Shown in pieces: positions 22,847 to 56,637 of a stretch of DNA of 59,824 nt (the first letter of the stretch is position 1; each line of letters starts with the position of its first letter). This DNA comes from a virus (lineage: Duplodnaviria; Caudoviricetes): positions 1 through 59,824 of the IMG/VR virus record IMGVR_UViG_3300020385_000016; one strand, given 5' to 3'. The notes beneath the pieces are model-generated. The model did no database searches. It was not told where the DNA came from and saw only the letters and a list, made by a program, of their open reading frames with translations. The position numbers and the translations under genes were made by a program.

Positions 22847-23929
22847 TTATGCCTCCTGTGGTAGAACTAATTGTACTTGATATTTTTGATTGAACTGATC
22901 AACGTCAGTTTGTGTTCTAATTTGTGCAAAGTCTCCAAGCGCTTGATAACTATTTGCTAATAAAGTTACAATATCATCACCAATTTCTTTTGGTAATCTT
23001 GCTCTTATTTCATCATAAGATAACTGTTCTGGATTTACTGTCTCTTCAACATTAACGTCAGTCATACTTGTCGGAGTTTCAGTCATTATATTTACATCTT
23101 CAGTCACCGATCCACCTTCAGCAAATTGTTTTACAAATTGTTGTGTCATTGTAGCTAAATACTGCGCCTGTAAATCAGCTAATTTGTTTAAATATTCAGG
23201 ATGATCCGCAGTAATTGGTTTGCCGTCACTACCTATTGCTGATTTAATTGCTTTTTTAGCTGCTCTGTTAGCTGATTTAATTAATTCTGTTTGTGAACCA
23301 AGTTTAAAGAAATCAGATACATCTAATCCTTTTAAAACATATAATTCTCTATCTTCATTATATTTTGCTGTAATTTCGTTTAATTTTTTTGTCTTTTCTT
23401 CTGGTTTTAAAGTTGTATCGTTATTAACATTTTCTCTTTTAGTTTCTGTTATTGAATCTAAAAGTATTTGTCTTGCTTTTAAATCACCTTGAGCTTTTTC
23501 CATACCTACTTTATATTCTACATCAGCAGCTGTTAATGTTCTTGCTAAATCTTCTCTTTGTTCCATAGCTTTTTGTTCTCTAGCATCCATTGATGTTCCA
23601 AGATCAACTCCTAATTTAGATAAAGGTTTTGAAGCTGCAGATAAAGTGCCTCCTAAAATACCACCTGTTTCTCCTGGTGCTCCTAATATATCTAGACCAG
23701 CACTAGCTATTCTTAAGTAGTCACCTCTAGATAAACCTTGTGTATTTCTTTCAGGTATTCTCTCTTTTATTGATTCGTAAATATCTACTACTCCAGAATA
23801 ACCACCTGGGCCATCTACTAATCCTCTTTTGTTTGGCATACCACCATCAGCTAAACCTGAAGCGATCCCCGTTCCATAACTATCTACACGTCCACCTCTA
23901 AACATTGGTCTTCTTAAAATTCTACTCAT
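22847..23929 (-). CDS. internal virion protein with xxGGx motifs
   Basis: position; MFRGGRV, LADGGMP, FAEGGSV. Confidence 0.65.
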   Translation of the reverse strand: MSRILRRPMFRGGRVDSYGTGIASGLADGGMPNKRGLVDGPGGYSGVVDIYESIKERIPERNTQGLSRGDYLRIASAGLDILGAPGETGGILGGTLSAASKPLSKLGVDLGTSMDAREQKAMEQREDLARTLTAADVEYKVGMEKAQGDLKARQILLDSITETKRENVNNDTTLKPEEKTKKLNEITAKYNEDRELYVLKGLDVSDFFKLGSQTELIKSANRAAKKAIKSAIGSDGKPITADHPEYLNKLADLQAQYLATMTQQFVKQFAEGGSVTEDVNIMTETPTSMTDVNVEETVNPEQLSYDEIRARLPKEIGDDIVTLLANSYQALGDFAQIRTQTDVDQFNQKYQVQLVLPQEA

Positions 23930-24663
23930 TATCCTCTAATTGCTCCCATTAATCCAGCTGCACCAATACCTAGTCCTAACAATTGTTGTGTAGCACTTGG
24001 TGGAGGTGTTGATTGAACTTGTGTTGCTGCCGGGAAACCACCGATAACTGATGCTAATTGTGGACCGACTAATCCTAATTGTGTGTAATCTGCAAACGCT
24101 GTTTCTCTAGCTGCTTCTTGGTCCGCTGCTAATCTTGCTTGATCTAATTGTCTTTGTTGACCACCCATTTGAGATTGATACGTACCTAAACCTTGTCTTG
24201 CAACTAAATCACCTGCCGCTGCTGCTTGTGCTTGTTGAAATCCTTGTTGTCTTAAATTTGCTTCAGACATTGCTCTAGCAATATCACCTGTTGCTTGGTA
24301 TTCTCCAATTGATGCTGCTTCTCTACCACCACCAAAAGCACCAGCTTGCGCTGCTCTTTGTCTTATACCAGCTAAACCTTTTTGTTGTTCTCTATCCATA
24401 GCTGCAAGCGAAGTATCAATAACTTCTTGCTGATAAGGTGACATGTAATCTTTGTAAGCTTGTGGTCCTACTAAAGCATCTAAACCTGATGCAGCTGTAG
24501 CTGCTTGTTGTTCTAATGCTGATTGACCTTGTACAAATTGTCTACCTGTATATGTAGATGTAGGAATAGGTGTTTTAAGAAGTTCTAAACCTTTATTCGT
24601 TATACCTAAACCGGCTGCTTCTACAAATGGTTCACGGAGTTGTCTTGTTATTGTTTCAGCCAT
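23929..24663 (-). CDS. internal virion (ejection/pilot) protein
   Basis: Q/A-rich, YMSPYQQEVID, AGAFGG, C-terminal hydrophobic helix. Confidence 0.7.
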   Translation of the reverse strand: MAETITRQLREPFVEAAGLGITNKGLELLKTPIPTSTYTGRQFVQGQSALEQQAATAASGLDALVGPQAYKDYMSPYQQEVIDTSLAAMDREQQKGLAGIRQRAAQAGAFGGGREAASIGEYQATGDIARAMSEANLRQQGFQQAQAAAAGDLVARQGLGTYQSQMGGQQRQLDQARLAADQEAARETAFADYTQLGLVGPQLASVIGGFPAATQVQSTPPPSATQQLLGLGIGAAGLMGAIRG

Positions 24664-24911
24664 TATTCTTTATCCTTTTTCTTTTTCTTTTCATTTAATT
24701 TTTTCTTTACTATACCAGTTCCTACTACTGCTGTAGTTCCAGCAGCTCCAACTTTACCTATATTTTTTAATATTTTTCCTGGACTTTTAATTAAGTTATC
24801 AGGATCTTCAGCACTTTTTCTATCTACAAAATCAAGTAAAGATTCTTTTTTAGGTTTTTTGTTTTTAACAAAAGCTTTACCTAATCCTTTTATCGCTAAA
24901 ATAACACCCAT
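24663..24911 (-). CDS. small basic amphipathic protein
   Basis: ORF coupled on both sides. Confidence 0.6.
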   Translation of the reverse strand: MGVILAIKGLGKAFVKNKKPKKESLLDFVDRKSAEDPDNLIKSPGKILKNIGKVGAAGTTAVVGTGIVKKKLNEKKKKKDKE

Positions 24912-26851
24912 TATACTTTTGCCTCCAGTTTGTGCATTGTTTCATACATACGTTTTGCTCCTTGGTTAACACTACCACCGCCTGCAGCTCTAACTGCATC
25001 GGCTGTCATTACAAATTCGTTCTTTGATAGTCTTGCAGGAACATCATCTGCTTTTTCTTTAGTTCCTTCAGGTATAAATCCACCACCTCTCATATCTTTA
25101 TCCATACCTGTATTCAATAAATTTTTATTCATTATACCACCTTCAGCTTTTTTACTAAAGGTATCAATTACTTCATCATATCCAGCGTAAGGCGTATCAT
25201 AAGGACCCATTCCAGCTCCTTCATCAAATCTTGTAAAAGTTTCTGCTCCTTCATCTAACATTCCTGAAGCTTTTAAACCTTTCATTCCACTTATAGAATC
25301 TCTATTTGCATCACTTATAAAGTAAGTGTTATCATCTAATTTTTCTACTATACCTTCTTCGACTAAACTATCTAAAGTTTTTTTACCTTTTTTTGATTTA
25401 GCTGTAACTTGTAATTCAAAAGAAGCTCCCGTGTCCTCTGCATAATCTGAGCTTCCTCTTAATTCTACATCATCAGTCATTCTTGATAATCTGTTAACTA
25501 CCATAGTTTTTAATTTTGATAGTCCTTGCATACTACTTTTTATACCAGCTTTACCCAATTCCATTAATGCACCAACTTTACCACCACCAGCCATACCAGA
25601 TCTAGCTTGTCTTAAATATGATGCAAAATCCATAGGTTCTAATCCTTGTTCTTCCATTTCAAAAACATATTGCTCATACATTTCTTCTATATCATCTTTG
25701 TATCCTGATGCTACTTGTGTTCCTTTTATACCTTGTCCTTGACTCATATCATCAAAAGCTTCTCTTGCTTTTTTAGCTGCATCTTCTGGTGAGAAACCTA
25801 AATCTAAAAACTCTTCAAAAAGTTTTTCTAAAAGTTCATCGTTTTGAGCGTTAGATACTTGTTCTCCATACTCAACGCCTTGATCTCTCATTAAATCCAT
25901 AATACCTAAATCGTCTACTTGTTCTTCTATTTCTACTTCACCACCTCTAGCAAATCTTTTAAACTCTGTTGGTTCCATTTCTCCAAAACTTCTACCATAT
26001 GCTTTTTGAACGCCGTCCATTGCAGTTGCTAAATGACCAGCTAAATTATCTTTATCTTCTTTTTCGGGAAAATTAAATACAAATTGACCTTTTTCATTTT
26101 TTGTTATAACAGGTTCTCTTTCCTCTTCATCTTCTTTATCTTTAGAAAAGAAATTTTTCATAGAAGCTTTAGCACCTTTATATCCTCTTGACACATTTTC
26201 TAAATAATTTTCGTCATCAAATATACCAAGTCCTTCTGCAAACCCTATTCTACCACCACCTGCGTAGCCATATGTATCTAACATTGTATTAACATAATCA
26301 TCATCATAACCAGCATTTTTATAAATACCAAAAATTGCATTTCTTCTATCTACTTTACTAGCTACACCTTGTTCTAATAAATTTTTATTATACTGATCTA
26401 TTTCATCTTGTCTAATTTCTGCAAACTTTGCAGATTGATCTAATGCTGTTTGTGCACCTATTGTTTTTACTGCACCTAAATTTCTTACAGCAGCATCTCC
26501 TTTGCCTGCTATATTAGCTAATTTTTCTGTAAAACTTAAAGCAGTTCCAGCATCGCCAACAGGTGCAAATTTTGTAGCAACTTGTCCTAACCCGCCTGAT
26601 ATTGCTCCAGGAGCCGCTGCTAAAATTCCTGCTCTTAATGGATTACCTTGTTCATCTGTAGCTGCAGACGTTGCTGCTGCTATTAATCCTCTTTGTGCTA
26701 ATGCTGTTCCCAGTCCACTACCAAATGCTTTACCTGCTATTCCAGGTCCAAAACCTGCTGCAATATAAGGTAAGAACGGCCTAATCTCTTTAGGTATAAT
26801 CTTCTTTGCTATTTTACGAACTGGTCTGAATACTTTTTTAAAAAATCCCAT
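24911..26851 (-). CDS. internal virion protein with repeated xxGGx motifs
   Basis: amphipathic N-terminus, five GG motifs, C-terminal DDVPARLSKNEFV domain also seen in tape-measure-like proteins. Confidence 0.7.
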   Translation of the reverse strand: MGFFKKVFRPVRKIAKKIIPKEIRPFLPYIAAGFGPGIAGKAFGSGLGTALAQRGLIAAATSAATDEQGNPLRAGILAAAPGAISGGLGQVATKFAPVGDAGTALSFTEKLANIAGKGDAAVRNLGAVKTIGAQTALDQSAKFAEIRQDEIDQYNKNLLEQGVASKVDRRNAIFGIYKNAGYDDDYVNTMLDTYGYAGGGRIGFAEGLGIFDDENYLENVSRGYKGAKASMKNFFSKDKEDEEEREPVITKNEKGQFVFNFPEKEDKDNLAGHLATAMDGVQKAYGRSFGEMEPTEFKRFARGGEVEIEEQVDDLGIMDLMRDQGVEYGEQVSNAQNDELLEKLFEEFLDLGFSPEDAAKKAREAFDDMSQGQGIKGTQVASGYKDDIEEMYEQYVFEMEEQGLEPMDFASYLRQARSGMAGGGKVGALMELGKAGIKSSMQGLSKLKTMVVNRLSRMTDDVELRGSSDYAEDTGASFELQVTAKSKKGKKTLDSLVEEGIVEKLDDNTYFISDANRDSISGMKGLKASGMLDEGAETFTRFDEGAGMGPYDTPYAGYDEVIDTFSKKAEGGIMNKNLLNTGMDKDMRGGGFIPEGTKEKADDVPARLSKNEFVMTADAVRAAGGGSVNQGAKRMYETMHKLEAKV

Positions 26852-26946
26852 AATTTTTATTGTGTTATATAAGTGAAATGCAAGATGGCCACTCTTGATT
26901 TAAGCCAGTATCTTTCATTTTACTTGTTTTTTTACCTCTAGTCAAT

Positions 26947-27195
26947 CTAGAATATATTACTACCTGCTCCTAAATTTATCTCTTCTACGGTTAATTTAAC
27001 GTCTCTTCTTATGTGTTCTGCTTTAGTAGCTGTATCTGTATTTTGTACATCTGCTAATGCTTCTGCATCGGACATATACTCTTGACCTGTTTCCATGTTA
27101 GTTAAAGTAATTTCACATTTAGGTGTAATGACTGGTACCTTTTTACCATTAATTACTTCGTATCTAACTGAAGCTTCTGTCTCTACAAATGACAT
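26947..27195 (-). CDS. hypothetical virion-module protein
   Basis: ORF in operon. Confidence 0.7.
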   Translation of the reverse strand: MSFVETEASVRYEVINGKKVPVITPKCEITLTNMETGQEYMSDAEALADVQNTDTATKAEHIRRDVKLTVEEINLGAGSNIF

Positions 27196-29902: not shown

Positions 29903-29912
29903 ATTTTAGCTC

Positions 29913-30632: not shown

Positions 30633-30636
30633 AATT

Positions 30637-31086: not shown

Positions 31087-31097
31087 AAATAATCCTT

Positions 31098-31132: not shown

Positions 31133-31147
31133 CATTTAAAGATTATA

Positions 31148-34254: not shown

Positions 34255-35604
34255 CTATGCCGTAAATGTTCCACTTCCTGTAAATACTCTAATTGTGTCT
34301 GATCCACAAGTTCCTGTTGCATTTCCACCTGAACCTCCGCTTGCTGTTGCGTGACGAATAACAACTATTCCTGACCCACCTGCTCCACCAGCTGCATAAG
34401 GAGATGGAGTGTGTCCTGCTCCACCACCTCCACCAGTATTAGCTGTTCCAGCAACGCCAGGAGTTCCTCCTCCACCACCATAACCACCATCAGAAGTAGT
34501 TGACCAACCTCCACCTCCACCACCAGCAAAATATCGTCCTGGACTTGTATTACTTGGATTAGGTGCTACACCATAAGAAGATGCTATTGGTGATGAACCA
34601 AAAATTGTATCTGCAGAACCAACTCCACCATCACCACTAGTTGCACCTGATCCTCCTGGTTGTCCAACAGCTCCAGCTCCACCGCCTCCACCACCGTTTT
34701 GAGAGTTTGGACCATTATTTCCTGGTCCACCATTGTTACCTTGAGATGGACTTACAGGAGGTGTGTTACCAGTTCCTCCTGGTCTTCCATTTGATCCTGA
34801 TGAAGTACATTTTGCACCACCACCACCTGAACCACCTGGTAAACCGTTACCTTGCGGAGGTGAAGATGGACCAGGAAAACCAACTGCTCCACCTCCACCA
34901 CCTGTTGATGTTATTGTACTAAAAATTGAATTTGATCCATTATTTCCACAACCACAAGGAAAAGTAGTTACAGTTCCACCTGTTCCTCCAGCACCAATTG
35001 TAACTGGAATAGAATCTCCTGCACTAACTGAAAAAGTTTTTGAAGCTATTGTTCTAAAACCACCTGCTCCACCACCACCTTGACCAACACCACTATTACT
35101 TGAAGCACCTCCAGCACCACCAGCAATTACTAAATATTGAACATTGTAGGTTTGAGGTTTTAATGTTGCTCCACATACGTTTGCATTATCAATAGCAATC
35201 CAACCTTGAGGTGCACCACTATAAATAACTGTAGCCGACATTCTCTCATCTTTTAAGTCTAAATTATTACAAGCACCTTTTATTTTAGAACCATTTCTAT
35301 TTAATGTAACAGCGTTAGTATCAAAAGTTCCATTTAAATCTGCTATTGAAACTATATCTCCTGCTGAAGGTGAAGCTGGTAAAGTTACAGTTACTGCTCC
35401 TCCTGAAGTGTTTACAAAATATCCATTGCCACTTACTGAAGTAAATGGACTTGTTTTAGCTGTTGTACACCAGTCTACTGTTCCTGTTCTACCAAAACCT
35501 GTTTGTGTAGCACCACACGCTAAAGTTACTGCTGTGCCTGGGCCACCTAATGTAAGTGTGCTTCCTGATCTTTTTTCTATTTTATTTACTTTAATTGTAC
35601 TCAT
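34255..35604 (-). CDS. glycine-rich tail fibre/adhesin 3
   Basis: shared N-domain QTGFGRTGTVDW plus poly-Gly domain. Confidence 0.8.
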   Translation of the reverse strand: MSTIKVNKIEKRSGSTLTLGGPGTAVTLACGATQTGFGRTGTVDWCTTAKTSPFTSVSGNGYFVNTSGGAVTVTLPASPSAGDIVSIADLNGTFDTNAVTLNRNGSKIKGACNNLDLKDERMSATVIYSGAPQGWIAIDNANVCGATLKPQTYNVQYLVIAGGAGGASSNSGVGQGGGGAGGFRTIASKTFSVSAGDSIPVTIGAGGTGGTVTTFPCGCGNNGSNSIFSTITSTGGGGGAVGFPGPSSPPQGNGLPGGSGGGGAKCTSSGSNGRPGGTGNTPPVSPSQGNNGGPGNNGPNSQNGGGGGGAGAVGQPGGSGATSGDGGVGSADTIFGSSPIASSYGVAPNPSNTSPGRYFAGGGGGGWSTTSDGGYGGGGGTPGVAGTANTGGGGGAGHTPSPYAAGGAGGSGIVVIRHATASGGSGGNATGTCGSDTIRVFTGSGTFTA

Positions 35605-35606
35605 AA

Positions 35607-37064
35607 TTATTGAAACTTATATCTTATTATTACCACACCAGACCCACCTGTTCCACCCGTACAAGGTGCACTGCCAGAATATTGTGCGCCACCACCACCT
35701 GTGTTAGCTGTACCTTTACGCGGAAAATTTGGTGAAGGTATAGGATTACCTGTTCCCCAACTTGGGGCTCCACCACCTGCTCCTCCTGAAGCATAACTTG
35801 GATTAGGTTGACTTAAAGAATAAATACCACCGCCAGCTCCACCAGCAAAATATCTTAATGGTGCACTTGGTCCTGGAGTACCAGCAGCTGGATTAATCTG
35901 TGTTCCTGCACCATCTCCACCATTTCCACCTCTAGGGCTAGTACCAGATGATCCGGATGCACTTGCTCCACCGCCGCCTCCGGCTCCAAGTTGAGGAAAA
36001 GTTGGACTGTTTGCTGGTCCACCATTATTTCCTTGAGGGGGACTTACTGGAGGTGTATTTCCTGATCCACCTGTTGCTGCACCGTGAACACCACCACCAC
36101 CTGAACCTCCTGGTTGACCTGCAGAACATGGAAATCTACCACCTCTACCACCTCCGGCAGAAGTTATTGTTGTAAAAGTTGAATTAGAACCATTGGTCTG
36201 ACTAGGAAAAGGACCTGTAGTAGTTCCGCCTGCACCTACTGTAATTGGGTAAGTTTGAACTGATAATGTTATAGCTGAACAAGGTGTTGCAGCTAAAGGA
36301 GATGCTGTGTAAGGATCAGTAGAAAGTTTACCTTCTCTAAATCCACCGCCACCACCTCCACCAGCAATGTTGTCACCACCTGATCCACCGCCTGCTACAA
36401 CAAGATAAGATGCTTTATCATTTGCTGAACATTGTGCTAAATTTGTAACAGCAAAACATCCACTTGAAGTAAATGTATGAATTTTATAGTCACCTGATTC
36501 TGTTATTGTTCCACCTGTTGCAACTACAAACGGAATTACTCCTCTAACATTAGATGTTGAATCCATAGTATTAATCCAACCTTGTGTTGAATCTACATAT
36601 ACCAAAGTTACTGATTGACCTTTTGTACTTAAAGTTGCATTTTGATTTAATGAACCAATTTTTTCTGTTCCATTGGGTACAATTGTTAAATTATTTGTTG
36701 CAAAAGTTTCTGCATAATCAGCTACTGAAACAATAGCTCCAACAACACCTGCTGGTAAATTCATATTGAAAGCACCACCTGTTGTATTTGCAAAATAACC
36801 TTCTCCATTTGCTGCTGTAAATGTAGCTGTTTTAATACTTCCTGTCTGCCAATCTACAGTCCCTGTTCTACCAAAACCTGTTTGTGTTGCACCTGATGCA
36901 AGATTAACAGCACCACCACATCTACCTAATGTTACTGTTGCACCATCAACTACAATCGTTTGACCAGAACCTGATCCAACTGTAGTTGTTGTTCCACATT
37001 TTTTAATGATTGTTGAATCATCTGAAACTTTATTTATATTATCTACTTTAATTTTACTTGTCAT
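35607..37064 (-). CDS. glycine-rich tail fibre/adhesin 2
   Basis: paralog of fibres 1 and 3; ends IIRYKFQ. Confidence 0.8.
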   Translation of the reverse strand: MTSKIKVDNINKVSDDSTIIKKCGTTTTVGSGSGQTIVVDGATVTLGRCGGAVNLASGATQTGFGRTGTVDWQTGSIKTATFTAANGEGYFANTTGGAFNMNLPAGVVGAIVSVADYAETFATNNLTIVPNGTEKIGSLNQNATLSTKGQSVTLVYVDSTQGWINTMDSTSNVRGVIPFVVATGGTITESGDYKIHTFTSSGCFAVTNLAQCSANDKASYLVVAGGGSGGDNIAGGGGGGGFREGKLSTDPYTASPLAATPCSAITLSVQTYPITVGAGGTTTGPFPSQTNGSNSTFTTITSAGGGRGGRFPCSAGQPGGSGGGGVHGAATGGSGNTPPVSPPQGNNGGPANSPTFPQLGAGGGGGASASGSSGTSPRGGNGGDGAGTQINPAAGTPGPSAPLRYFAGGAGGGIYSLSQPNPSYASGGAGGGAPSWGTGNPIPSPNFPRKGTANTGGGGAQYSGSAPCTGGTGGSGVVIIRYKFQ

Positions 37065-37066
37065 AA

Positions 37067-38446
37067 TTATTGAAATTTATATCTTATTATTACTATACCT
37101 GATCCACCTGCCATACCAGAACCTCCTGCACCTCCACCTGCATTAGCTGTACCATTTGTTCCATTTCCAGGAGCAGGGGGTGCTGAATTTGCAGTTCCTC
37201 CACCACCATATCCACCTGTATTACCACTACCATTAGCGTATCCTCCACCGCCACCACCACCAGAATAATATCTTAATGAACCACTTGGTCCTGGTGCTCC
37301 TATTGGAGCTGCTGTATTAATTGCTGTTCCTGCGCCAGCTCCTCCAGGTCCTCCACTTGGGCTTGATCCACTACCTCCTGCAGCACTTGCTCCACCGCCG
37401 CCTCCGGCTCCAAGAGCTGGAAAACCTGTACCGGCACCACCTCCGGGTTGACCTTGTGCTGGACTAACTGCAGGAATATTTCCTGCACCACCTCCACCAG
37501 GAACATTACCACCGGCCCCACCACCTGAACCTCCTGAAACAACGGCAACTGATGGTGCACCACCAGATGCTCCTCCACCTGCACTTGTTATTGTACTAAA
37601 AATTGAAGTAGTTCCACTTGATCTTGAACAACCACCTGCTCCACCTGCTCCTACTGTAACTGGATATGTTGTTGCTGCTGCAATTGTTAAAGCTGAACAA
37701 GGTGTTGCAGCTAAAGGTGACGCTGTATATGGATCGGTAGAAAGTTTACCTTCTCTAAAACCTCCTCCACCTCCACCACCACCTAGATTTGGATATGATC
37801 CGCCACCGCCTGCAACTACTAAATAAGAAATTTTATTATTAGCTGGAGTAGGGGCTGTTGTAACTGCAAAACATGAAGTAGAAGTAAAAGTGTGAATTTT
37901 ATAATCTCCACAAGTTGTTTCTGTTCCACCTGCTGCTGTTATAAAACTAGGAACACCTGATACGTTTAAAGTAGCATCATTAACTTGTTTCCAACCTCTA
38001 GTACCATCTACATAAACTAATGTAATAGCTGCTCCTTGAGCAGATACTATACCATTAAAACAACCACCATTAATTTTAGAACTATTTCTACAAATAGTTA
38101 AAGCATTTGTTTGAAATGTAGAAGCGTAATCTGAAAATGCTACAATGTCGCCTGCACTTGGTGATGCTGGTAAAGTAACTGTAACTGCTCCTCCTGTTGT
38201 ATTTATAAAATATCCGTTACCACTAACTGATGTTAATGGAGAAGTCTTGGCAGTCGTACACCAGTTAACTGTCCCTGTTCTACCAAAACCTGTCTGACTT
38301 GCACCTGAAGCTAACGCTACAGTTGCACCACATCTACCTAAAGTTACAGTAGTTGCATCTAAAACAACAGTTTTACCTGATCCACCACCTGTTGTAAGTG
38401 TTGATCCTGATTGTTCTGTTATTGTATTTACTTCTATTTTAGACAA
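37067..38446 (-). CDS. glycine-rich tail fibre/adhesin 1
   Basis: paralog; TTG start; ends IIRYKFQ. Confidence 0.8.
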   Translation of the reverse strand: MSKIEVNTITEQSGSTLTTGGGSGKTVVLDATTVTLGRCGATVALASGASQTGFGRTGTVNWCTTAKTSPLTSVSGNGYFINTTGGAVTVTLPASPSAGDIVAFSDYASTFQTNALTICRNSSKINGGCFNGIVSAQGAAITLVYVDGTRGWKQVNDATLNVSGVPSFITAAGGTETTCGDYKIHTFTSTSCFAVTTAPTPANNKISYLVVAGGGGSYPNLGGGGGGGGFREGKLSTDPYTASPLAATPCSALTIAAATTYPVTVGAGGAGGCSRSSGTTSIFSTITSAGGGASGGAPSVAVVSGGSGGGAGGNVPGGGGAGNIPAVSPAQGQPGGGAGTGFPALGAGGGGGASAAGGSGSSPSGGPGGAGAGTAINTAAPIGAPGPSGSLRYYSGGGGGGGYANGSGNTGGYGGGGTANSAPPAPGNGTNGTANAGGGAGGSGMAGGSGIVIIRYKFQ

Positions 38447-43123: not shown

Positions 43124-43837
43124 TTATATATGAAGAGGAATACAGGTACCCCAATCTATAAACGTCGGTTCAGCTAGATCTTTTCTATCATACACATCAA
43201 AAGCAACACTAATTCTAGGGCTTTTAGATAATGTTGTGTCTGTATAATGAGGCAAATATGTAGGAAAAATAATCATTTCACCTGGAATATTTTCTATACA
43301 CCAGCCTTGGTTTTCACAAACTGAAAGGTAATAGGTGGATGTAGATTCTGCTTGAATAGTTAAATGGCCACTTAAAAAGCTTTTTTCAGAATCTAACAAA
43401 GAGCGATGTTTATGTTGACCTATTTTTTCATCTTTCCTTAAAACATTAAACCAACAAATAATCCATAAATCATTGGTAGGAATATTCTTTCCTTCTTTAT
43501 TAAATTTATTAACACACATTCTTATATTTTTTATTATATGTTCTTGTAATCCTTTTAATGCAGAGGATTTAAATTTTAAAAAATTAAAAAATTGATATCT
43601 TGCAGTTAAACCATTAGTTAAACCTGTACCTCCATCGTGAGTTGCGGGATATTTATTTATTATCTCTTTTTCTTTTTTTAATAAAAAAGACACTGATTTT
43701 TTTTGATCAAAATTTAATTTATCACTTTTCCAAAACCAATAAGGAACTTCTAATCCTAGAGAGGATTTATTTTCTGTGGTTTTTAAATTAACCCAATTTA
43801 AACCTAAACCTGCTTTTCTTTCTTTGACCTTTATCAT
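43124..43837 (-). CDS. 2OG-Fe(II) oxygenase (TIGR02466-like)
   Basis: WFNVL...HKH...LSGH...FPTYLPHYT...RISVAFD. Confidence 0.8.
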   Translation of the reverse strand: MIKVKERKAGLGLNWVNLKTTENKSSLGLEVPYWFWKSDKLNFDQKKSVSFLLKKEKEIINKYPATHDGGTGLTNGLTARYQFFNFLKFKSSALKGLQEHIIKNIRMCVNKFNKEGKNIPTNDLWIICWFNVLRKDEKIGQHKHRSLLDSEKSFLSGHLTIQAESTSTYYLSVCENQGWCIENIPGEMIIFPTYLPHYTDTTLSKSPRISVAFDVYDRKDLAEPTFIDWGTCIPLHI

Positions 43838-48167: not shown

Positions 48168-48181
48168 AGTTCCTTCCTATG

Positions 48182-48658
48182 TTAAATGTAATGAAGAATC
48201 GATTCTGGATCACTTATCGTACCCAAAACTTCATCATCGTTTAGTAGTCGCACTTCTCCGCCTTCAATTGGTAATCTTGAACCCGCATAACGAGCAAAGA
48301 TAACCCAATCTCCTTTTTTGCACCAAGGTTCATTATACTTATCTTTATCCTTGTATGCTAAATCTCCTAGTTCCAAAACATAACCACATGTTGTTGAAAT
48401 TCTAGCTTTGTCTAATTGTTCTTGTGAAAATAAAATACCACCTTTAGTTTTTTCTTTTGGTGTAAAAGGTAAAACTAAAATTCTAAACCCAACAGGTTTA
48501 GGCAATTCTTTAACTGTCTCTCTGATATTATCAGAGTGTAGTCTTTTTGCGTGAGGTTCTTGTTTTGCTTCTTCTTTATACTTTTCTTCTAAAGCATTAA
48601 TGTGTTTCGGAGTTTCCGTCTTTTTTGGTTCCGATGTCGATAACGTTTCCTTGCTCAT
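48182..48658 (-). CDS. groES: GroES-like co-chaperonin
   Basis: PVGFRILV, KTKGGIL, GDWVIFARYAG, LLNDDEVLG. Confidence 0.88.
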   Translation of the reverse strand: MSKETLSTSEPKKTETPKHINALEEKYKEEAKQEPHAKRLHSDNIRETVKELPKPVGFRILVLPFTPKEKTKGGILFSQEQLDKARISTTCGYVLELGDLAYKDKDKYNEPWCKKGDWVIFARYAGSRLPIEGGEVRLLNDDEVLGTISDPESILHYI

Positions 48659-48848: not shown

Positions 48849-49051
48849 TATTCTTCTCCTCTGTAAGGTTCTAGTGTTTCTAATTTTTCTTTAGCAGTTG
48901 CTATTTTTTCAAATAGTTTATCCATTTCATCAAGGTGTTGAGGATGTTCTCCAATACCTACTGAATGATCTAGATATATTTCTAATGTTGCTTCTGCTTC
49001 TGCGATTTGTGCTTCGTATCTTTTTACTAATGCTTCAATTAACATTTCCAC
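48848..49051 (-). CDS. hypothetical protein
   Basis: SVGIGEHP motif. Confidence 0.75.
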   Translation of the reverse strand: MEMLIEALVKRYEAQIAEAEATLEIYLDHSVGIGEHPQHLDEMDKLFEKIATAKEKLETLEPYRGEE

Positions 49052-49545
49052 CTTTTTCTAGCCTGACGTAGTCTAGAATTAGGATCTTTCGCTGCATTTG
49101 GGAATTTCTTCATTTGACCTGCGCTTCTTGCACAGTACGACTTACGTCGGTTTGCAGCTTTTGACCCTTTTTTCACTTTACCAGTCACGGCTGTTTTTAG
49201 TTTAGAACCGGGATTTTTTCTTCTATAGGAAGCGACACCGGCTCGAGTCATTCCTGCTCCAGACTTTGTAGGTCTAAAGTTTTTTTTATTTCTTTTAGGC
49301 ATTACATCTCCACCTTTAGCAAATTTAGCTCTTATACCAAATGTTATTCTATTTCCGTCTTTATTTTTTGAAACTTTTACACCACCTGAAATTTTTTCTT
49401 TGTGATAGCTCATATCAAATCCAAAATCTTTTTTAGATTTAGCTGCTCCACCTATTGAAGAATTTTTAGTTGAACGTCTTGCGTGTACATATGGTTTTTT
49501 ATCCGTGTGATCTACTGATACACCCCCATATTTAACAGCTGGCAT
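49039..49545 (-). CDS. basic protein (DUF6321-like C-terminus)
   Basis: GMTRAGVASYRRKNPGSKL...RRKSYCARS...DPNSRLRQARKRWKC. Confidence 0.7.
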   Translation of the reverse strand: MPAVKYGGVSVDHTDKKPYVHARRSTKNSSIGGAAKSKKDFGFDMSYHKEKISGGVKVSKNKDGNRITFGIRAKFAKGGDVMPKRNKKNFRPTKSGAGMTRAGVASYRRKNPGSKLKTAVTGKVKKGSKAANRRKSYCARSAGQMKKFPNAAKDPNSRLRQARKRWKC

Positions 49546-49811: not shown

Positions 49812-50225
49812 CTATTTCTTTTTAAGTTCCCTAACTATTCTTTTTTTTTCTTGTTTAAGATTTCTTTTACCTTTTGAAGTTTTTGCTTTTTCAGCATCAA
49901 CTCTACCAAGTTCTTCAAGTCTGTTCATTCTTTTAGTATTAACATGACCTCCTTTTTTCATAAAGCCCATTTTGTTTCTGACTTTAGTAGGTAATTTAGA
50001 TAAACCTTTTTTACCAGCTGGTACAGGTTTTAAAACTTTACCACCTTTTTTCATAGCGCCTCTGTCCATAAGTTCAGTAGGTACTCTTTTAGATCTCATG
50101 TTTACACCTTGTCCACGTGAATACATCATTTCTCCAGATCTGCCGCCCATGCCACCGCCAGCTTTTTTTACTCTGTCTGTTCCTCTAGGTTGAGCAACTT
50201 GTGTGTTATATCTTCTATTTGCCAT
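49812..50225 (-). CDS. highly basic protein with KKGG repeats
   Basis: MKKGGKV, MKKGGHV. Confidence 0.65.
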   Translation of the reverse strand: MANRRYNTQVAQPRGTDRVKKAGGGMGGRSGEMMYSRGQGVNMRSKRVPTELMDRGAMKKGGKVLKPVPAGKKGLSKLPTKVRNKMGFMKKGGHVNTKRMNRLEELGRVDAEKAKTSKGKRNLKQEKKRIVRELKKK

Positions 50226-50608: not shown

Positions 50609-50609
50609 A

Positions 50610-50813: not shown

Positions 50814-50838
50814 ATTTATCTCCTTGTATTAATTATAT

Positions 50839-53319
50839 CTATTTTTTTCCGAAATTTCTACCAAAATCGTGAATTTTACTCTTGTCTGCCATGCCTTGTT
50901 TAGCTAATGACACACTTGCTCTTAATTTTGCTAGTTTTTCATTTTGAACAAGCTTATCTTCTTGATTTTCTTGGTTCATAAGTGCTTTTGCAGTGTCTAA
51001 ATCAATTCTCTCTTGATCATCTTTAGATTTTCGCTCATTTTCTTTAGCTCTTAAGTCAACTTCTCTTGCTTTTAACTTAATTAATGGATCACCACTATAC
51101 TCACCCATAATTTTTTGTTCTTCATCCATATATTCTTTAGTCATTTCAGCAATCAATTGTGCTTTTCTTGCATTAATCTTATTTGTTAGTGCTTGAGCTT
51201 GCGCAATCAACTGTGGGTTCTGTGGATTTTGTTGTAACATCATTTGCATTTGTTGTGCTTGCATTAATTCTTGAGAAAATTCTAATTGAATCTGTTCTTG
51301 AGCCATTAAACTAATTCTCTCTAGAATATTTTTTTGTAATGCAGCCATAACAGATGGTGAATTTTGTACCATATTAGATTGCATAAAATTTAAGTGTGAA
51401 TCAATGTGTGCTTTGTGATCTTGACCTGGAAAAGCTTGAAAAGGTTTCATACCCATTGCAGCAATTTCTTCAAGTGAAGGATCAATAGGAGTTGGTTGTG
51501 CTGGTGGTGGTAAAATTGCATTTACATTTTTAACACCAAGCGCATCATACATAGATCTGTACGCTTGATATAGATCATGTATTTGTGGATTAGTTTGAGC
51601 TAATTGTAATTGTGTTTGAGCTAAACTAATTCTTTGAGTTTGTGAAAATATGTTTGGATCAGCAACTGGAATAATATCTATTCTATCATCAAAGTCCTGA
51701 ACTTTAATATTTCTTGTAGCTCCAACAACATCGTATGGATATACAGCTGGTAAATAAGTTTTAAAAACTTCTGCTAATAATTTGAATTCTTGTTTTAGAC
51801 CAACGTATAATCTTTTATGAATCGCTGACATTACACGTGAACCACGTTCTAATAATGCAACAGTTGTACCCACGGCAGCTTGTTGGTTCATATCGCCTAC
51901 TTGTGAGTCTGCGATAGACGCGAAGCGTTGGCCTGCTTGAACAACTATACCCATTAATGAAAGTAATGTTTGATCTGGTCCTTTAAATGGTAATTGCATA
52001 AACTGATCTCTAATGTTTCCACCAGGTGCATCAACATCTCTAAACTCTCCAGGTTGTAATGGTTGTGCATCATCTCTAATTCTTAATCCTCTAGTTTTAA
52101 AACCAGCTGGTAAGTTAGCTAATGTACCTGCATCTAATAATTGTCTTAAAGCTGCAGTTGCAGTTCTAGTTAAACCACCAATCATGTGAATTAAACCAAA
52201 ACCATAAAAACCAGTTCCAGGTAAAAATTTAAATTGTACAAAGTAATCTATTTTCTTTTTCATTGGATCTGTCGCTTGATAGTTTCTTCTAATGGATAAA
52301 ACAGTTTGATTGTTTTCTGCAAACGTTACAATGTAAGGTAATTTAATTCCTGTAGGTTCACCTTCTTGATTAACATCTTCATAACCTTCTAGATCTAAAT
52401 TAGTGTGCATTTCAAAAAGTGTATACTGATCTTCTTGACCATCTTTTGTAATACCTTCTAACTCTAATTTTTTATCTGATAATTCATTTGATGTTACAGG
52501 AGGTTCTCCTAATTCTACGTCTCTATAAAAACCTGCAACTTGTTGTTTTCTTAATTCGTTAGCAGAAATTTTAATGACATGTACAATAGCATCTGTGTCA
52601 TCTAATGATGTTGCTGAATAAGGTACAATTAAATCTTCTGCAGGTACAAATTTAGATACGGCTCTACCTAAAAGATCGTCATAATAAACTTTCTTAAAAG
52701 TAGAACCGGACAGGGGTAGATAGAAAAGCATTTGATCAAACTCTGGTTCATATTCTTTCATCTTATCCATAAGTTGATAATTCATAAAATTTTTAACACG
52801 TTTAGATTGTTCTTCTTTTTCAACATTGATAGCACCTAAAATTTGTGTTCTTACTGGACCATCACTTGGTAATAATTCTTTATAAGCTGTTGCTTGAAAT
52901 TGTGTAACCGCTTCAGCTAGTACAGGGTGATTAACACCTGATGCACCTTTGAAGGGTTCTGTTCTTCTCTCGTATTTGAAACCTAATAATTCTAAACCTT
53001 CTCTATAAGATTGTTCCCAATCTGCTCTTGATTCTTTGTACTCTGTGTATTGATCAAAAAGAGTTGAACCTAAAGATTCTAACTCACCATCAGACATGTC
53101 TTCTGCTAAATTTGCAAAGTGACCATCTGTGCTTCTATCTGTACTAGTTGTAGGATCAAAAGTAACTTCTGCTCCTCCTGTTTCATCCATAACAACTTCA
53201 CTTGTGTCTGTTGTAATAACTTCTTCTGAACCGGGAACGGCTACTTCTTTTTCTTGAAACTCTGTATCTTTAACTTCTTCAACTGTGTTGGGCAATGACT
53301 TATCTATACTATCTACCAT
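50839..53319 (-). CDS. portal protein
   Basis: SRADWE, HPVLAEAVTQFQA, GSTFKKVY, FYGFGLIH, AIHKRL; follows TerL. Confidence 0.88.
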   Translation of the reverse strand: MVDSIDKSLPNTVEEVKDTEFQEKEVAVPGSEEVITTDTSEVVMDETGGAEVTFDPTTSTDRSTDGHFANLAEDMSDGELESLGSTLFDQYTEYKESRADWEQSYREGLELLGFKYERRTEPFKGASGVNHPVLAEAVTQFQATAYKELLPSDGPVRTQILGAINVEKEEQSKRVKNFMNYQLMDKMKEYEPEFDQMLFYLPLSGSTFKKVYYDDLLGRAVSKFVPAEDLIVPYSATSLDDTDAIVHVIKISANELRKQQVAGFYRDVELGEPPVTSNELSDKKLELEGITKDGQEDQYTLFEMHTNLDLEGYEDVNQEGEPTGIKLPYIVTFAENNQTVLSIRRNYQATDPMKKKIDYFVQFKFLPGTGFYGFGLIHMIGGLTRTATAALRQLLDAGTLANLPAGFKTRGLRIRDDAQPLQPGEFRDVDAPGGNIRDQFMQLPFKGPDQTLLSLMGIVVQAGQRFASIADSQVGDMNQQAAVGTTVALLERGSRVMSAIHKRLYVGLKQEFKLLAEVFKTYLPAVYPYDVVGATRNIKVQDFDDRIDIIPVADPNIFSQTQRISLAQTQLQLAQTNPQIHDLYQAYRSMYDALGVKNVNAILPPPAQPTPIDPSLEEIAAMGMKPFQAFPGQDHKAHIDSHLNFMQSNMVQNSPSVMAALQKNILERISLMAQEQIQLEFSQELMQAQQMQMMLQQNPQNPQLIAQAQALTNKINARKAQLIAEMTKEYMDEEQKIMGEYSGDPLIKLKAREVDLRAKENERKSKDDQERIDLDTAKALMNQENQEDKLVQNEKLAKLRASVSLAKQGMADKSKIHDFGRNFGKK

Positions 53320-53335
53320 ATCTCTTTCCTGTTAA

Positions 53336-55357
53336 TTAATTTACACCTTTGACGGCAACTATACCCTCATTGGGTTTGGAAGTAAAGTCCTCTTCCTCCA
53401 TCATTTCAAAACCTTCCGGCATAATTTGTGGTAAGCCAGCCATATATTCTTTTCTAAATTCTGGCTCTTGTCGTATTCTTCTTCCTGTAGTGGCTACTTC
53501 AGGATCAGCAGTTACATATGCACCTAATAAATCAAATGGATTTCTCTCACCGGCTTGAGTTGCACTAGTAACAGCTGTAAGACCTGTTACTATTCCAAGT
53601 GGTTTAATTACTTTACCAGCTCCTTTAGCCAACATTCCTAATGACCTTAAAACTGCTCGTTTGTTTGGTACAAAACCTTCAGTTCCTCTTTTAACTTTTA
53701 CAGTTTCAGAACCAACAGTTCTATTTACTGTTTTAATTGGGGCTCTAGTGTTTGCATCATCAAAGTACTTATTAATAATTTTTTTTGAATTTCTATCTGA
53801 TATTTTTAGTAAACCTTCTTGTTTTGCAATTTTAACGATTTGATCTGCATAGTTTCTTTTTATTTGAAAGTCTTCAACTCCTCCTAATTCTACTTGTGAA
53901 AGAGGTTTACCTACGTCCATTAAAGTTCTTGCTTTACCTGAAGTTATTCTAAAAGGTTCTGCTGTTGCAGGATTAATAAAAATAGGATTTAATTTTGCTG
54001 CAATCACAGGATTAGTTTTTTTAAATAAGTTATCTATTTTATCATTATTATTTTGTATGAGGTTAGATAAATTTTTAGAAGTCCCTTCTCTACTTGCTCT
54101 GTTATATAATCTTTTTTGTTCGGCATACAAAGGTTTTAATTTTGCTTCTAAAGTTTTTACGCCAAATTGATATCTACTTACCCCTCTTCTGTTAGCTTCT
54201 GTAAACTCTAAACCTAAATCTTCAGATAAAATTTCTTGTTTACCTAATCTAGATAACAATCCAATGTCTGATCTATGAGAAAGATCTAGGGGCATAAAGG
54301 AGGACTTTTGACCTACCACTTCTTTAATTCCTAACAGTCTTCCTATTTCTGTTTTAAATTTACCAAGACTATTTTCATAATTCTTTGACCCCAACTTGGT
54401 TAATTTTTTATCTCTTCTTATTCTTTTTTGTGCGTCAGCTTCCGGTGTTGTTTTTTTAGGACCTCTTTCTTTTCTTTGTGATTCAGAAAGTTCACCAGAC
54501 TTTTTAGGTTCCAGTCTACCTTCTTCAAATATCTTTGCTGCTAAATGTCCAAATTTAGCATCAGCAGTTTTAAGTTTATCATTAGGAAATAATTTTTTAG
54601 CTAATTCTAATCTACCTAATTTTCTATAGTCTTTTATAAGTTTTTGTTTTAATTTTTCATCATATAAATAAGTTTGAGGTTGAAAGTCTGACACTTTTTT
54701 ACCTATTTTTTTTAAAGCACGTGGAACAGCACCAAAAGGAATCTTTACTGCTTTAGCAACTTCTGCTTGAGTCTTTCCTGCTTTGAGAAGTTTTTTAATT
54801 TCTGGAAGTTCTTTTTTGTAAGAAACTTCTTGTCCTTTAAATTTTTTCTTTCTAATTTTTTCCATAGCTGCTTTTGCTTCAGCCTCTGATTTATAATATT
54901 TACTAACTAATTTTTTTGTGCCGTCTTTTTGCACAACAGGCATTCTATATTTCCATGGTTTACCTGGTGGGTGTTTTTTTGCTTTTAATACAGAAGGGTT
55001 TAAAGTTTCTCCTCCTTTTTTAGAACCAAAACCAAATTTATCTCTGTATTCTTTTTCAAACTCTTTTACTTTTTTACGAGCTTCTTTTAATCCAGTTTCT
55101 GTAAAAGGTTGAGCACTTTTTCTGTTAAAACCTTCTCTAGAAAAATCTGCTAAATATCTTTTTTCTCCACCTTTAGTATCATATGTTTTTACATATTTAT
55201 TTCCTTCACCATCTAAATTTTTTAAATTAAATTTTTCACCACCATAACTTCCTGGTTCATCAACAAAGCCACGTTTCGGTGTTGTAACAACCCCACCAAC
55301 TTTATAACCCGGTCTTAATCGCGTAAGTATATCTGTGAATAGAGTTTCGTCGGCCAT
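53336..55357 (-). CDS. basic multidomain protein (AP2-like, HTH and HNH-like segments)
   Basis: WKYRMP..KYYKSEAEAKA; LLKAGKTQAEVAKAVKIPFGAV; LDLSH...EDLGL...ANR. Confidence 0.55.
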   Translation of the reverse strand: MADETLFTDILTRLRPGYKVGGVVTTPKRGFVDEPGSYGGEKFNLKNLDGEGNKYVKTYDTKGGEKRYLADFSREGFNRKSAQPFTETGLKEARKKVKEFEKEYRDKFGFGSKKGGETLNPSVLKAKKHPPGKPWKYRMPVVQKDGTKKLVSKYYKSEAEAKAAMEKIRKKKFKGQEVSYKKELPEIKKLLKAGKTQAEVAKAVKIPFGAVPRALKKIGKKVSDFQPQTYLYDEKLKQKLIKDYRKLGRLELAKKLFPNDKLKTADAKFGHLAAKIFEEGRLEPKKSGELSESQRKERGPKKTTPEADAQKRIRRDKKLTKLGSKNYENSLGKFKTEIGRLLGIKEVVGQKSSFMPLDLSHRSDIGLLSRLGKQEILSEDLGLEFTEANRRGVSRYQFGVKTLEAKLKPLYAEQKRLYNRASREGTSKNLSNLIQNNNDKIDNLFKKTNPVIAAKLNPIFINPATAEPFRITSGKARTLMDVGKPLSQVELGGVEDFQIKRNYADQIVKIAKQEGLLKISDRNSKKIINKYFDDANTRAPIKTVNRTVGSETVKVKRGTEGFVPNKRAVLRSLGMLAKGAGKVIKPLGIVTGLTAVTSATQAGERNPFDLLGAYVTADPEVATTGRRIRQEPEFRKEYMAGLPQIMPEGFEMMEEEDFTSKPNEGIVAVKGVN

Positions 55358-56637
55358 TATCTTAATACATCAGCATCGTAATTACTTAATCCAGCTGGTG
55401 TACTAAAATCTTGACTTATTGTACTTCCATCTTGATTTGTAAATGCTGGTCCACTGTATGTTAATCTATCTCTTTGAGCTTGTAATTTAGCTAACTCTTT
55501 AGCAGCTTGTTTGTCTTTTATTGCTTGTATAATATCTAAAGCTTTTTCTTTTCCTTTACTTAAAGCTGCTTTAGCTGCATTAAATTGAAACATTGGATTA
55601 AGAGGATTATATTTAATAGCTGGATTATTAAGTACATCCATTATTCCAAATTTATTTTCTTCTTCTTCAACAGGTACACCTCTTTGTAAATTTAATTTAG
55701 CCATAGACTCTCTAAAAGTTAAATCCTCTTTAGGTGCTCTTGGTTGTATAGTTGTTATACCACCACTATCACCACTAGATTGTGGAATAGGTATAATAGG
55801 TTTAATTGGATTGATCGGAGCAATAGTTGAAGTTGTTGATTGAGTAGCTGTATTAGTTTGTGGTGTTGTCGTTGTTGTTTGTTGTGCAAATAAATCTAGG
55901 TAATCTTGTTTGTTAGGATATTGGGATTGAAGCGTAGGATTGTTATCGTAAGTATCGCTTATATTAGTCATACCTCCTGTTGCTAATTCCATAATGCCAC
56001 CATCTTTCATTAAAGGCATTCCTAAAAGATTATAAACTTCTAGTAATCCACTTAAACCTAACTCTGCTCCAACAACAGCAGGGCCTCCAAGAAAATCTAC
56101 AACTTTACTTCCAAAAGGTTTTTTTACTTTTCCACCACCAGCCATTCCATCAGGATCACCATCATAGTCTTTTAATTTTTCACCTAAAGATTTTTCTGGT
56201 TTATTCATTTTTTCTTGTAATCTTTTTGCAGCAGCTTTGTTTTCTGCCATAATTCTTTTTATATTTTCTTCTTGTGTAAGTTTAGGATCAACAGTAGGTT
56301 TTCTTTTTGTAGTTTTAGGAGCTTGTCCTATTTTAACATCTTTACCTTTACCTTTATCCATTAACATTTTTAAAATATTGTCAGGTGTCATCGTAGTTGT
56401 TTTACCTTTTACCGTTACAGGTATGCCTGTTTTCTTCATCATTATTTCTGTTTCTGTAGGTCTTGGTTTGAATGGATTTGTAATTCTCTCTTTTGGAAAC
56501 TCTATAACTTTTTTAGCGTCAATAACTTTCTGTCTTGCTTTTTGTTTAATTTTAAGAAGATCAAGTCCTTCGGGCATAATACCTTTAGCCGATTTGTAAG
56601 CTGCTACTAATAGTTTGTATGCGGTTTGATATGTCAT
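55357..56637 (-). CDS. modular protein with xxGGx motifs
   Basis: MAGGGKV, MKDGGIM, LATGGMT separate compositionally distinct segments. Confidence 0.65.
   Translation of the reverse strand: MTYQTAYKLLVAAYKSAKGIMPEGLDLLKIKQKARQKVIDAKKVIEFPKERITNPFKPRPTETEIMMKKTGIPVTVKGKTTTMTPDNILKMLMDKGKGKDVKIGQAPKTTKRKPTVDPKLTQEENIKRIMAENKAAAKRLQEKMNKPEKSLGEKLKDYDGDPDGMAGGGKVKKPFGSKVVDFLGGPAVVGAELGLSGLLEVYNLLGMPLMKDGGIMELATGGMTNISDTYDNNPTLQSQYPNKQDYLDLFAQQTTTTTPQTNTATQSTTSTIAPINPIKPIIPIPQSSGDSGGITTIQPRAPKEDLTFRESMAKLNLQRGVPVEEEENKFGIMDVLNNPAIKYNPLNPMFQFNAAKAALSKGKEKALDIIQAIKDKQAAKELAKLQAQRDRLTYSGPAFTNQDGSTISQDFSTPAGLSNYDADVLR

Follow-up and report, generated by a model that had tools for sequence, protein, structure and literature searches.

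A directional Gly-Gly heptad at the module joints of mosaic, presumed virion proteins in an HTVC023P/HTVC027P-type pelagiphage genome

Positions 1 to 59,824 of the virus record IMGVR_UViG_3300020385_000016 (Duplodnaviria; Caudoviricetes), the stretch of DNA that we call the window, encode six proteins (P1 to P6, Table 1) in which a seven-residue tag of the form h-[A/K]-x-G-G-x-[V/I/M] recurs. The window is the essentially complete 59.8 kb genome of a podovirus, a pelagiphage (ocean phage) of the HTVC023P/HTVC027P type. HTVC023P-type pelagiphages are among the most abundant marine viruses, and their structural genes mostly lack annotation. Our analysis confirms that the recurring tag is genuine and orientation-specific. 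It also shows that mosaic proteins of HTVC023P/HTVC027P-type pelagiphages have the tag as a conserved, directional element at their junctions; it persists even as neighbouring modules undergo insertion, deletion, fusion, splitting or transfer from one gene to another. Our preferred interpretation, to which we assign a probability of roughly 40%, is that the element serves as a joint at which mosaic internal or ejection proteins are processed.

The tagged proteins occupy three places in the genome. P6 and P5 lie between the large terminase gene (56637..58100) and the portal gene; P4 and P3, both small, come after the portal and before GroES, a scaffold-like protein and the capsid gene; and P2 and P1 follow a 735-residue virion structural protein and precede a giant virion protein of 1413 residues. 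From this gene order and from weak homology, all six are presumed to be virion proteins of the internal or ejection kind; our searches of open-access literature text found no proteomics for the HTVC023P-type group.

A first-pass annotation of this DNA had listed 16 copies of the heptad, and translation of the coordinates places every one of them where it was reported. Its proposed consensus, [FYMKL]xxGGx[VIM], which we use as the strict pattern, describes 13 of the 16, whereas LADGGMP, KAGGGMG and LATGGMT depart from it; an overlapping KKAGGGM raises the strict count in the six proteins (2410 residues) to 14. Shuffling within proteins yields 0.93 +/- 0.95 such tags (2000 shuffles, maximum 6), and 2.0 are expected when every GG is held in place (maximum 8). 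Since the six proteins were chosen after the fact, the whole proteome was tested as well: its 88 open reading frames (ORFs; 19000 residues) hold 19 tags against an expectation of 4.4 +/- 2.2 (300 shuffles, maximum 13), and without the six proteins 5 remain against 3.6 expected. The reversed pattern, [VIM]xGGxx[FYMKL], is found twice in the proteome, where 4.6 matches are expected, and not at all in the six proteins. Strict tags account for 14 of the 37 GG sites of the six proteins. None of the 134 GG sites is a tag in three window proteins that consist of 21-26% glycine (34255..38446; Fisher p = 5e-11), and elsewhere the figure is 5 of 83 (p = 3e-5). The shuffles, the reversed pattern and the tag-free glycine-rich proteins together imply that the motif is directional and no by-product of composition; enrichment over a matched background, a check set in advance, was thus obtained in the plain shuffles, the GG-fixed shuffles and the reversed pattern alike. 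As a negative control, the portal protein contains no tag in 66012 residues from 81 relatives. The giant 1413-residue protein holds one strict match, KKSGGAI, probably by chance.

The tag recurs at matching places across relatives. By portal identity the window is closest to 023Pt_psg01 (72.5%), followed by Pelagibacter phage HTVC027P (63.5%), HTVC023P (52%) and phage DSL-LC04 (45.5%), and shuffling indicates enrichment in HTVC027P (11 tags against 3.2) and 023Pt_psg01 (14 against 4.5). From the 80 best IMG/VR loci of 559 portal relatives, four related GenBank genomes and the window we gathered 208 unique tag contexts. In a consensus of 196 unique contexts the two glycines are invariant; they are preceded by M, K, Y, F or L at -3, K or A at -2 and D or K at -1, and followed by R, K or I (R or K in 78 of 196, I in 21), then V (143 of 196), I or M, and then G, the residue after V being mostly G or K. 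The heptad often extends as G-[F/Y]-x-x-G-G, with the second GG often eight residues on. Individual proteins follow suit: the N-terminal tag of P1, a protein without a PHROG or Pfam match, is kept as MFRGGPV in 023Pt_psg01 and as FRKGGNV in HTVC027P; HTVC023P has FKRGGDV followed by sequence resembling the post-tag part of P3; and the P4 family contains 80 tags in 5416 residues of 43 proteins.

How closely the tag coincides with module boundaries is best seen in P2. Across the final 87 residues of P2, identity is 83-100% in the 120 proteins listed out of 8000 matches (lengths of 400-810 residues), and the last 66 residues of P2 match 4203 clusters formed at 50% identity (E<=1e-3), nearly always at the C-terminus among 150 listed matches (exceptions seen were P0135 and P0140). 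Every one of 121 P2-family proteins carries 3-8 tags. When these proteins were cut at their tags and the pieces clustered, 15 piece families in 49 architectures resulted, with a fixed N-module, a fixed C-module and variable cassettes between them. Of 4867 internal ends of BLAST high-scoring segment pairs, 18% lie within 3 residues of a tag GG, where 7% would do so at random. In an alignment of 60 P2 sequences, in which glycines G199, G200, G303 and G304 are invariant, occupancy drops from 90% to 23% directly after V426 (the V426/427 break), and both occupancy and conservation reach 100% exactly at A569 (the K568/A569 break). A word-index search for longer proteins with the P2 C-terminal module gave one match among 21 candidates, from which no diverse alignment was possible.

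P6 extends this behaviour across genes. The hydrophobic cassette between its tags matches, at 80% identity (E = 7.5e-24), an insert that is likewise flanked by tags in two P2-family proteins of other phages, P0010 and P0003. The C-module, which follows the last tag, forms the start of stand-alone proteins in six relatives with the terminase gene upstream (L048, L043, L054, L056, L072 and L060), L025 encodes the N-module as a protein of its own, and L028 lacks the cassette; fusion and fission of the P6 halves occur at the tag. Segments between tags are also unlike in composition, as the first-pass annotation had held, with net charges of +7, -6, -21 and -7 in P2 and of +17, 0 (the hydrophobic segment) and -2 (a T/Q/P-rich segment) in P6. 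Its further expectation that such segments are swapped as modules across relatives is upheld by the 49 architectures, the alignment ends, the P6 cassette and the occupancy breaks. A longer motif, KRG[LF]VD.PG.Y.G, indeed follows the tag in both P1 (residues 34-46) and P5 (residues 28-40).

An AlphaFold2 model of P2, built from the 60-sequence alignment, is poor overall (mean predicted local distance difference test score, pLDDT, of 51) and has three confidently predicted modules (residues 140-195, 335-418 and 480-520). All five P2 tags (5/5) fall in coil with pLDDT <50 beside confident modules, which shows them, in the prediction, as short linear motifs in disordered linkers next to folded modules. 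The invariant C-terminal module is of low confidence as a monomer. Structural searches gave no lead: a Foldseek comparison of the P2 model with BFVD returned template modelling scores (TM-scores) <=0.10, uninformative at a mean pLDDT of 51, a phmmer search of P2 against PDB sequences returned one chance match (E = 0.86), and an ESM Atlas search with P5 reached a best score of 0.76 with structural TM-scores <=0.21.

What might such a joint be for? A lead comes from the C-terminus of P2, which matches the tape-measure families phrog_5448 (5.3e-5) and phrog_6090 and, in tblastn searches, the tape-measure proteins of 15 Tsukamurella and Gordonia phage records, the 'tail tape measure protein' of DSL-LC04 and the first residues of HMO-2011 gp49, the product of the gene after the HMO-2011 portal; P1, P3, P4, P5 and P6 gave no tape-measure match. 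The actinophage proteins carry a composite of FRDGGPV or FATGGPV followed by GPGTETSDSIPA.LS.NEYVLSADAVR, and lambda gpH contains FHF-ATGGFTG...HRGEFVF and GY-ATGGYVG. A stretch of the type ...[G/N]-E-[F/Y]-V... follows P2 tag 5 (GGGFIPEGT..DDVPARLSKNEFVM) as well as the actinophage, HMO-2011 gp49 and lambda tags; it does not follow the other ~14 window tags, and no curated Pfam or NCBIfam family exists to score it against. Pfam and NCBIfam searches with the composite module of six phages returned only the lambda-specific TIGR01541 and, for T5, the last 36 residues (PF24165), leaving the tag uncovered, and BLASTP of P2 against lambda gpH found nothing significant (best E = 5.3). Judged from sequence comparison, tape-measure proteins of unrelated phages, namely lambda, T5 and the actinophages, have the same element at the start of their conserved C-terminal module. 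In SAR116 phage HMO-2011, gp49 (L093, GU557055.1; 762 residues) has the tag and an DDIPAQLSEGEFVMPADVV element at its N-terminus, whereas this combination is C-terminal in P2 and the tape-measure proteins.

For two of these proteins cleavage has been reported. T5 pb2 is converted to pb2* and pb2C by a cut 'after R1127', located by mass spectrometry (PMC10038345). In the sequence this cut reads FVPR/AEGGMMYPG (the slash marks the cut) and falls inside a tag-like element that contains the sole GG of the last 700 residues. R-A-x-G-G is kept in five of five intact T5-like proteins (37-72% identity). K568-A-E-G-G-I-M of P2 is nearly identical to R1127-A-E-G-G-M-M of T5, and the conservation of the P2 C-terminus among 60 homologues begins at A569, the counterpart of T5 A1128; in both, the tag opens a conserved C-terminal fragment of ~80-90 residues, which T5 retains in the particle. 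Lambda gpH is converted to gpH* and gpHC by a cut in a glycine-rich region, for which neither the precise site nor the catalyst is established according to PMC12617516 (2025). This region holds two tags, F-ATGGFTG and Y-ATGGYVG, followed by the ...GEFVF... stretch that is also seen in the C-terminal module of P2. To our knowledge, no catalyst has been assigned to the maturation of lambda gpH or T5 pb2 since the 1970s. A sixth T5-like protein, the unannotated counterpart of the pb2 C-terminus in Aeromonas phage vB_AdhS_TS3 (L096, OP820700.1 100601-101369), was left out of the count above because of in-frame stops: one lies exactly at the T5 cut position (...NFKPR-stop) and three more downstream, which could reflect a split gene, a pseudogene or sequencing errors.

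From the T5 pb2 cut at R1127/AEGG and the glycine-rich tail of lambda gpH we infer that the tag may be an assembly-coupled processing site. We envision a scenario whereby mosaic precursors would be cut at or beside their tags during assembly, as are T5 pb2 and lambda gpH, and whereby cutting would free the modules as separate internal or ejected polypeptides, leaving conserved terminal pieces docked in the particle. Cassette shuffling would then be possible because each tag-bounded module would work alone, so that recombination at a short conserved joint would be tolerated.

Several observations weigh against such processing. A scan of 40 of the 88 ORFs called in the window recognised no protease family, which bears out the initial remark that no protease gene is obvious; the only peptidase match is to an M15_3 endolysin-type protein. 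The podovirus phiRIO-1, which lacks a protease, shows no processing (PMC4819975). T5 pb2 supplies the sole mapped cut behind the link, its first residue, R, lies outside the set of the consensus, and the +3 position is not conserved among T5-like proteins (M, M, G, G and T). In lambda, a T5-type cut at F733/A734 would release 12.5 kDa and a cut in the poly-Gly run (709-721) 14.4 kDa; with a reported fragment of ~14 kDa, the poly-Gly run fits at least as well as the tag. Enrichment is not significant in HTVC023P (7 against 4.4) and DSL-LC04 (10 against 4.6, shuffle maximum 13). The conserved C-terminal tail of P5 reads NEG in the window (KPNEGIVAVKGVN) where relatives have NGG (YFNGGIVAVKGVK), and the tail is kept all the same. 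Many tags stand in tandem with an 8-residue period, at most 2-3 copies at a time, an arrangement ill-suited to a T5-type cut. Finally, 9 of 186 unique tags are flush with the protein C-terminus, as in EPRFADGGLV-stop, where 0.6% are expected.

Candidates for a protease were considered and set aside. The 220- and 153-residue proteins encoded before the capsid gene have no family match and a composition that is not protease-like, and the 'ATP-dependent protease' ORF of DSL-LC04 has no counterpart in the window (best tblastn E = 9.1).

The C-terminal and tandem tags favour docking over T5-type cutting, and the foremost alternative, which we rate as possible but somewhat less probable than processing, is that the tag stays uncleaved and acts as a short strand-turn-strand peptide for docking or assembly that holds hypervariable proteins in the particle. 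Its partner might, with equal reserve, be a conserved virion component (the portal, the capsid interior, the scaffold or the tail lumen) or other tags, and tandem copies would provide avidity. The bias towards protein ends is in keeping with this idea: besides the tags flush with the C-terminus, 14% of the 186 unique tags are followed by no more than 10 residues (6.5% expected), and 21% start in the first 20 residues. So are the proteins of the terminase-portal interval, which range from <100 to 942 residues and have bodies that cannot be aligned, yet keep short N- and C-terminal tails around the tag, including RLRPG-YKVGGRV, GGIVAVKGVK-stop, GGLATMFKLKG-stop and GGRVYLYNRLK-stop. Such conserved tails may resemble the cargo-loading peptides of encapsulins. 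The P2 C-terminal module, moreover, is nearly invariant yet of low pLDDT alone, a combination expected of a segment that becomes folded once bound. On the other side, no partner has been identified, tail (tape-measure) and head-module proteins would require different receptors, and internal tags are conserved like terminal ones, the four invariant P2 glycines among them. The T5 cut could tentatively be accommodated if it merely fell in an exposed linker beside a bound tag; it falls, however, inside the motif and not outside it.

Further features of these tails deserve mention. Among 10 hypervariable relatives of the proteins between terminase and portal, none (0/10) has a Pfam match, and by the same search none contains a toxin domain. 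Across the loci L009-L088, otherwise unrelated proteins share tail families (GGLATMFKLKG-stop, GGRVYLYNRLK-stop, EGMIYNLFNKDE-stop and PRFADGGLV-stop), all of which finish with an aromatic or hydrophobic residue plus basic residues. Other relatives have a P5-type tail that likewise lacks the GG (DGIMGIVPPKGVI). In one clade (L064, L070, L075, L079, L080, L082 and L084) the ORF upstream of the portal starts with a twin-arginine-like sequence (MNRRSFIKGLMALASAPA..., MDRRDFLKALGVLASMP...) and ends in a tag plus the tail ...SLTVI.IPDIS.SGVE.LFK.R; a twin-arginine translocation (Tat)-type signal is odd on a presumed virion protein.

An improbable explanation is that the GG linker is a passive hinge and a scar of recombination, providing flexibility, perhaps for threading through the tail channel, with no specific recogniser, and that the short conserved coding sequence favours in-frame recombination (a part of the idea that we consider just as improbable). 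Cassette joints do coincide with tags, the tags do lie in linkers predicted to be disordered, and tag glycine codons lean towards GGT (22 of 33, against 101 of 209 elsewhere in the same genes). This codon bias is weak, however (p = 0.06), and no more than ~10 specified bases of DNA are shared, which falls short of the length needed for homologous recombination. Nor would a hinge need a hydrophobic residue or K at -3, A or K at -2, V, I or M at +3, or a fixed orientation; it would be needless at protein ends, and the tag is common to tape-measure proteins of unrelated phages.

Another thought is that the tagged proteins mimic the GroES mobile loop and bind host GroEL by a K-x-x-G-G-I-V-L-like loop, helped by the phage GroES. 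GroES loops of relatives (KTKGGIV, KTKGGLI and KTKGGVI) fit the strict pattern, the T5 site has three hydrophobic residues after its glycines (GG-M-M-Y), and GroES is encoded in the same gene block (48182..48658) and belongs to the 13-gene core of the HTVC023P-type group (PMC9599517). Binding to GroEL, by the Cpn10 signature, takes three hydrophobic residues after the glycines. We regard the mimicry as very improbable all the same, given that only the second residue after GG of the tag is hydrophobic, with R or K first in 78 of 196 contexts and mostly G or K third. Chance or a composition artefact of Gly- and Lys-rich proteins, which could appeal to the 3 of 16 listed copies that break the consensus and to the ordinary sites that the loose pattern also picks up (two conserved terminase sites, LQPGGAI and FRQGGFI, and the GroES loop), is refuted by the shuffles, the GG-fixed shuffles, the reversed pattern and the glycine-rich protein control, together with conservation at orthologous places and cassette joints.

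By analogy, the system would work closest to the maturation of T5 and lambda tape-measure proteins. T5 pb2 shares with P2 a near-identical heptad and, like the window, has no assigned protease; unlike the window, with its 16 tags in six podovirus proteins, many of them terminal or tandem, it has one site in a siphovirus tail protein. T5-like phages do not preserve the V/I/M position, and cleavage in the window phage is a proposal. Lambda gpH differs in that its site is unmapped and that the upstream poly-Gly run fits the fragment size as well or better. The tail-associated lysin (Tal) of TP901-1 and Tuc2009 cleaves itself by its own peptidase domain. In TP901-1, Tal is processed at NGGGNSGGGD, between its structural and catalytic domains (PMC11409707); it is likewise a virion injection protein proteolysed at a Gly-Gly-rich joint between two domains, but with a single site that lacks the flanking hydrophobic and V positions.

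The cassette logic may come closest to the demarcation motifs of polymorphic toxins. In Rhs (DPxGL) and CdiA (VENN) proteins a short motif bounds a variable module and marks the point of cassette swaps, and the Rhs motif is also cut; the motifs, proteins and biology are otherwise different. T4 capsid-targeting sequences and encapsulin peptides are short terminal peptides that load variable proteins into a shell of the HK97 fold, and the T4 peptide is then removed. The comparison with T4 made in the first-pass annotation does not hold up: motif and protease differ, there is no gp21 counterpart, and an N-terminal tag is present in only 2 of 6 proteins. A search for a prohead protease gave no match, the capsid protein matching only the capsid half of fused protease-capsid PHROGs. 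Adenovirus and African swine fever virus (ASFV) proteases, to which the tag had also been likened, share with it the GG core and the polyprotein idea. Their consensus is (M/I/L)-x-G-G-x with the cut after GG, for which a cysteine protease is required. The tag has two residues between the hydrophobic residue and GG instead of one, the T5 cut precedes the residue at -2, and no matching cysteine protease was found in the 40 ORFs, so that this analogy fails as well. The double-glycine leader of bacteriocins, which is N-terminal and removed behind its GG by a C39 peptidase transporter, was rejected, as most tags are internal or C-terminal and no C39 or ABC transporter match was found in the scanned ORFs. 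RTX repeats (GGxGxDxUx) have a 9-residue period, a conserved Asp and long arrays; they too were rejected, the tag having a period of 8, no conserved Asp and <=2-3 tandem copies.

Nearly all genes of the window lie on the minus strand, and the features discussed above are collected in Table 1. P3 ends in a DUF6321 domain (PF19846, 4e-11; residues 97-166, 49048..49257), which in other phages forms the end of much longer proteins (phrog_10346 and phrog_727) and of which we found no mention in open-access literature. The three glycine-rich proteins of 34255..38446 are tandem paralogues (449, 485 and 459 residues) with similar N-termini and a guanine-plus-cytosine (G+C) fraction of 0.43, against ~0.34 elsewhere in the genome. 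A role as fibres or spikes is probable; in 023Pt_psg01 the annotation reads 'putative structural protein'. The first 2 kb (1..2000), also with a G+C of 0.43, hold plus-strand ORFs, unlike the minus-strand bulk of the genome, and this set includes a small-terminase-like protein (1921..2496, phrog_51). Auxiliary genes encode an S-adenosylmethionine decarboxylase-like protein (17578..17955, phrog_3125), a 2OG-Fe(II) oxygenase (43124..43837, phrog_81) and the M15_3 peptidase (17959..18411), which is the likely endolysin.

Table 1. Tagged proteins, their tags and modules, and neighbouring genes in the window (residue numbers refer to the protein)
Feature	Coordinates	Strand	Description
P1	22847..23929	minus	360 residues; presumed ejection-module protein just upstream of the 1413-residue giant
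P1 tag MFRGGRV	23885-23905		residues 9-15
P1 tag LADGGMP	23834-23854		residues 26-32
P1 tag FAEGGSV	23105-23125		residues 269-275
P1 long motif	23792-23830		KRGLVDGPGGYSG
P2	24911..26851	minus	646 residues; tape-measure-like mosaic protein
P2 tag 1, YAGGGRI	26246-26266		residue 196
P2 tag 2, FARGGEV	25934-25954		residue 300
P2 tag 3, MAGGGKV	25574-25594		residue 420
P2 tag 4, KAEGGIM	25130-25150		residue 568
P2 tag 5, MRGGGFI	25073-25093		residue 587
P2 invariant C-terminal module	24914..25147	minus	A569-V646; tag 4, tag 5, DDVPARLSKNEFVMTADAV, last helix
P3	49039..49545	minus	168 residues; very basic
P3 tag FAKGGDV	49303-49323		upstream of the DUF6321 domain
P4	49812..50225	minus	137 residues; very basic
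P4 tag KAGGGMG	50145-50165		
P4 tag MKKGGKV	50034-50054		
P4 tag MKKGGHV	49941-49961		
P5	53336..55357	minus	673 residues; hypervariable, adjoins portal gene; conserved N-terminal tail
P5 tag YKVGGVV	55286-55306		
P5 long motif	55238-55276		KRGFVDEPGSYGG
P5 conserved C-terminal tail	53339-53395		
P6	55357..56637	minus	426 residues; module fusion; N-module is residues 1-163
P6 tag-flanked hydrophobic cassette	55972-56148		residues 164-222
P6 tag MAGGGKV	56125-56145		
P6 tag MKDGGIM	55990-56010		
P6 tag LATGGMT	55966-55986		
P6 C-module	55360-55971		residues 223-426
Portal protein, SU10 type	50839..53319	minus	phrog_1216 (1.1e-66), PF23899
Giant virion structural protein	18602..22843	minus	1413 residues; phrog_22602 (2.7e-21); closes the presumed ejection module
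Phage GroES (Cpn10)	48182..48658	minus	mobile loop KTKGGIL resembles the tag

That phage injection proteins are processed at glycine-rich joints is already known. What appears to be new is that one defined heptad occurs many times over in six proteins and delimits mobile cassettes, and that it matches the mapped T5 site; we found no description of this tag in open-access literature. The seven-residue tag provides a simple rule for reading hypervariable proteins and thousands of metagenomic relatives. Its link to T5 pb2 makes the open question of lambda gpH, that is, the cut site and the enzyme, testable in laboratory phages, the tag predicting F733/A734 and Y778/A779 as candidate cuts in lambda and a conserved R-A-x-G-G site in T5-like phages. 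Conceivably, though we consider this rather unlikely, a widespread activity that processes phage injection proteins, the same one that matures lambda gpH and T5 pb2, recognises the tag, which has been multiplied in pelagiphages of this type, where internal virion proteins would be mosaic polyproteins whose cassettes are loaded, cut free and delivered with the DNA. If so, these phages would gain new cargo simply by recombination at the tag.

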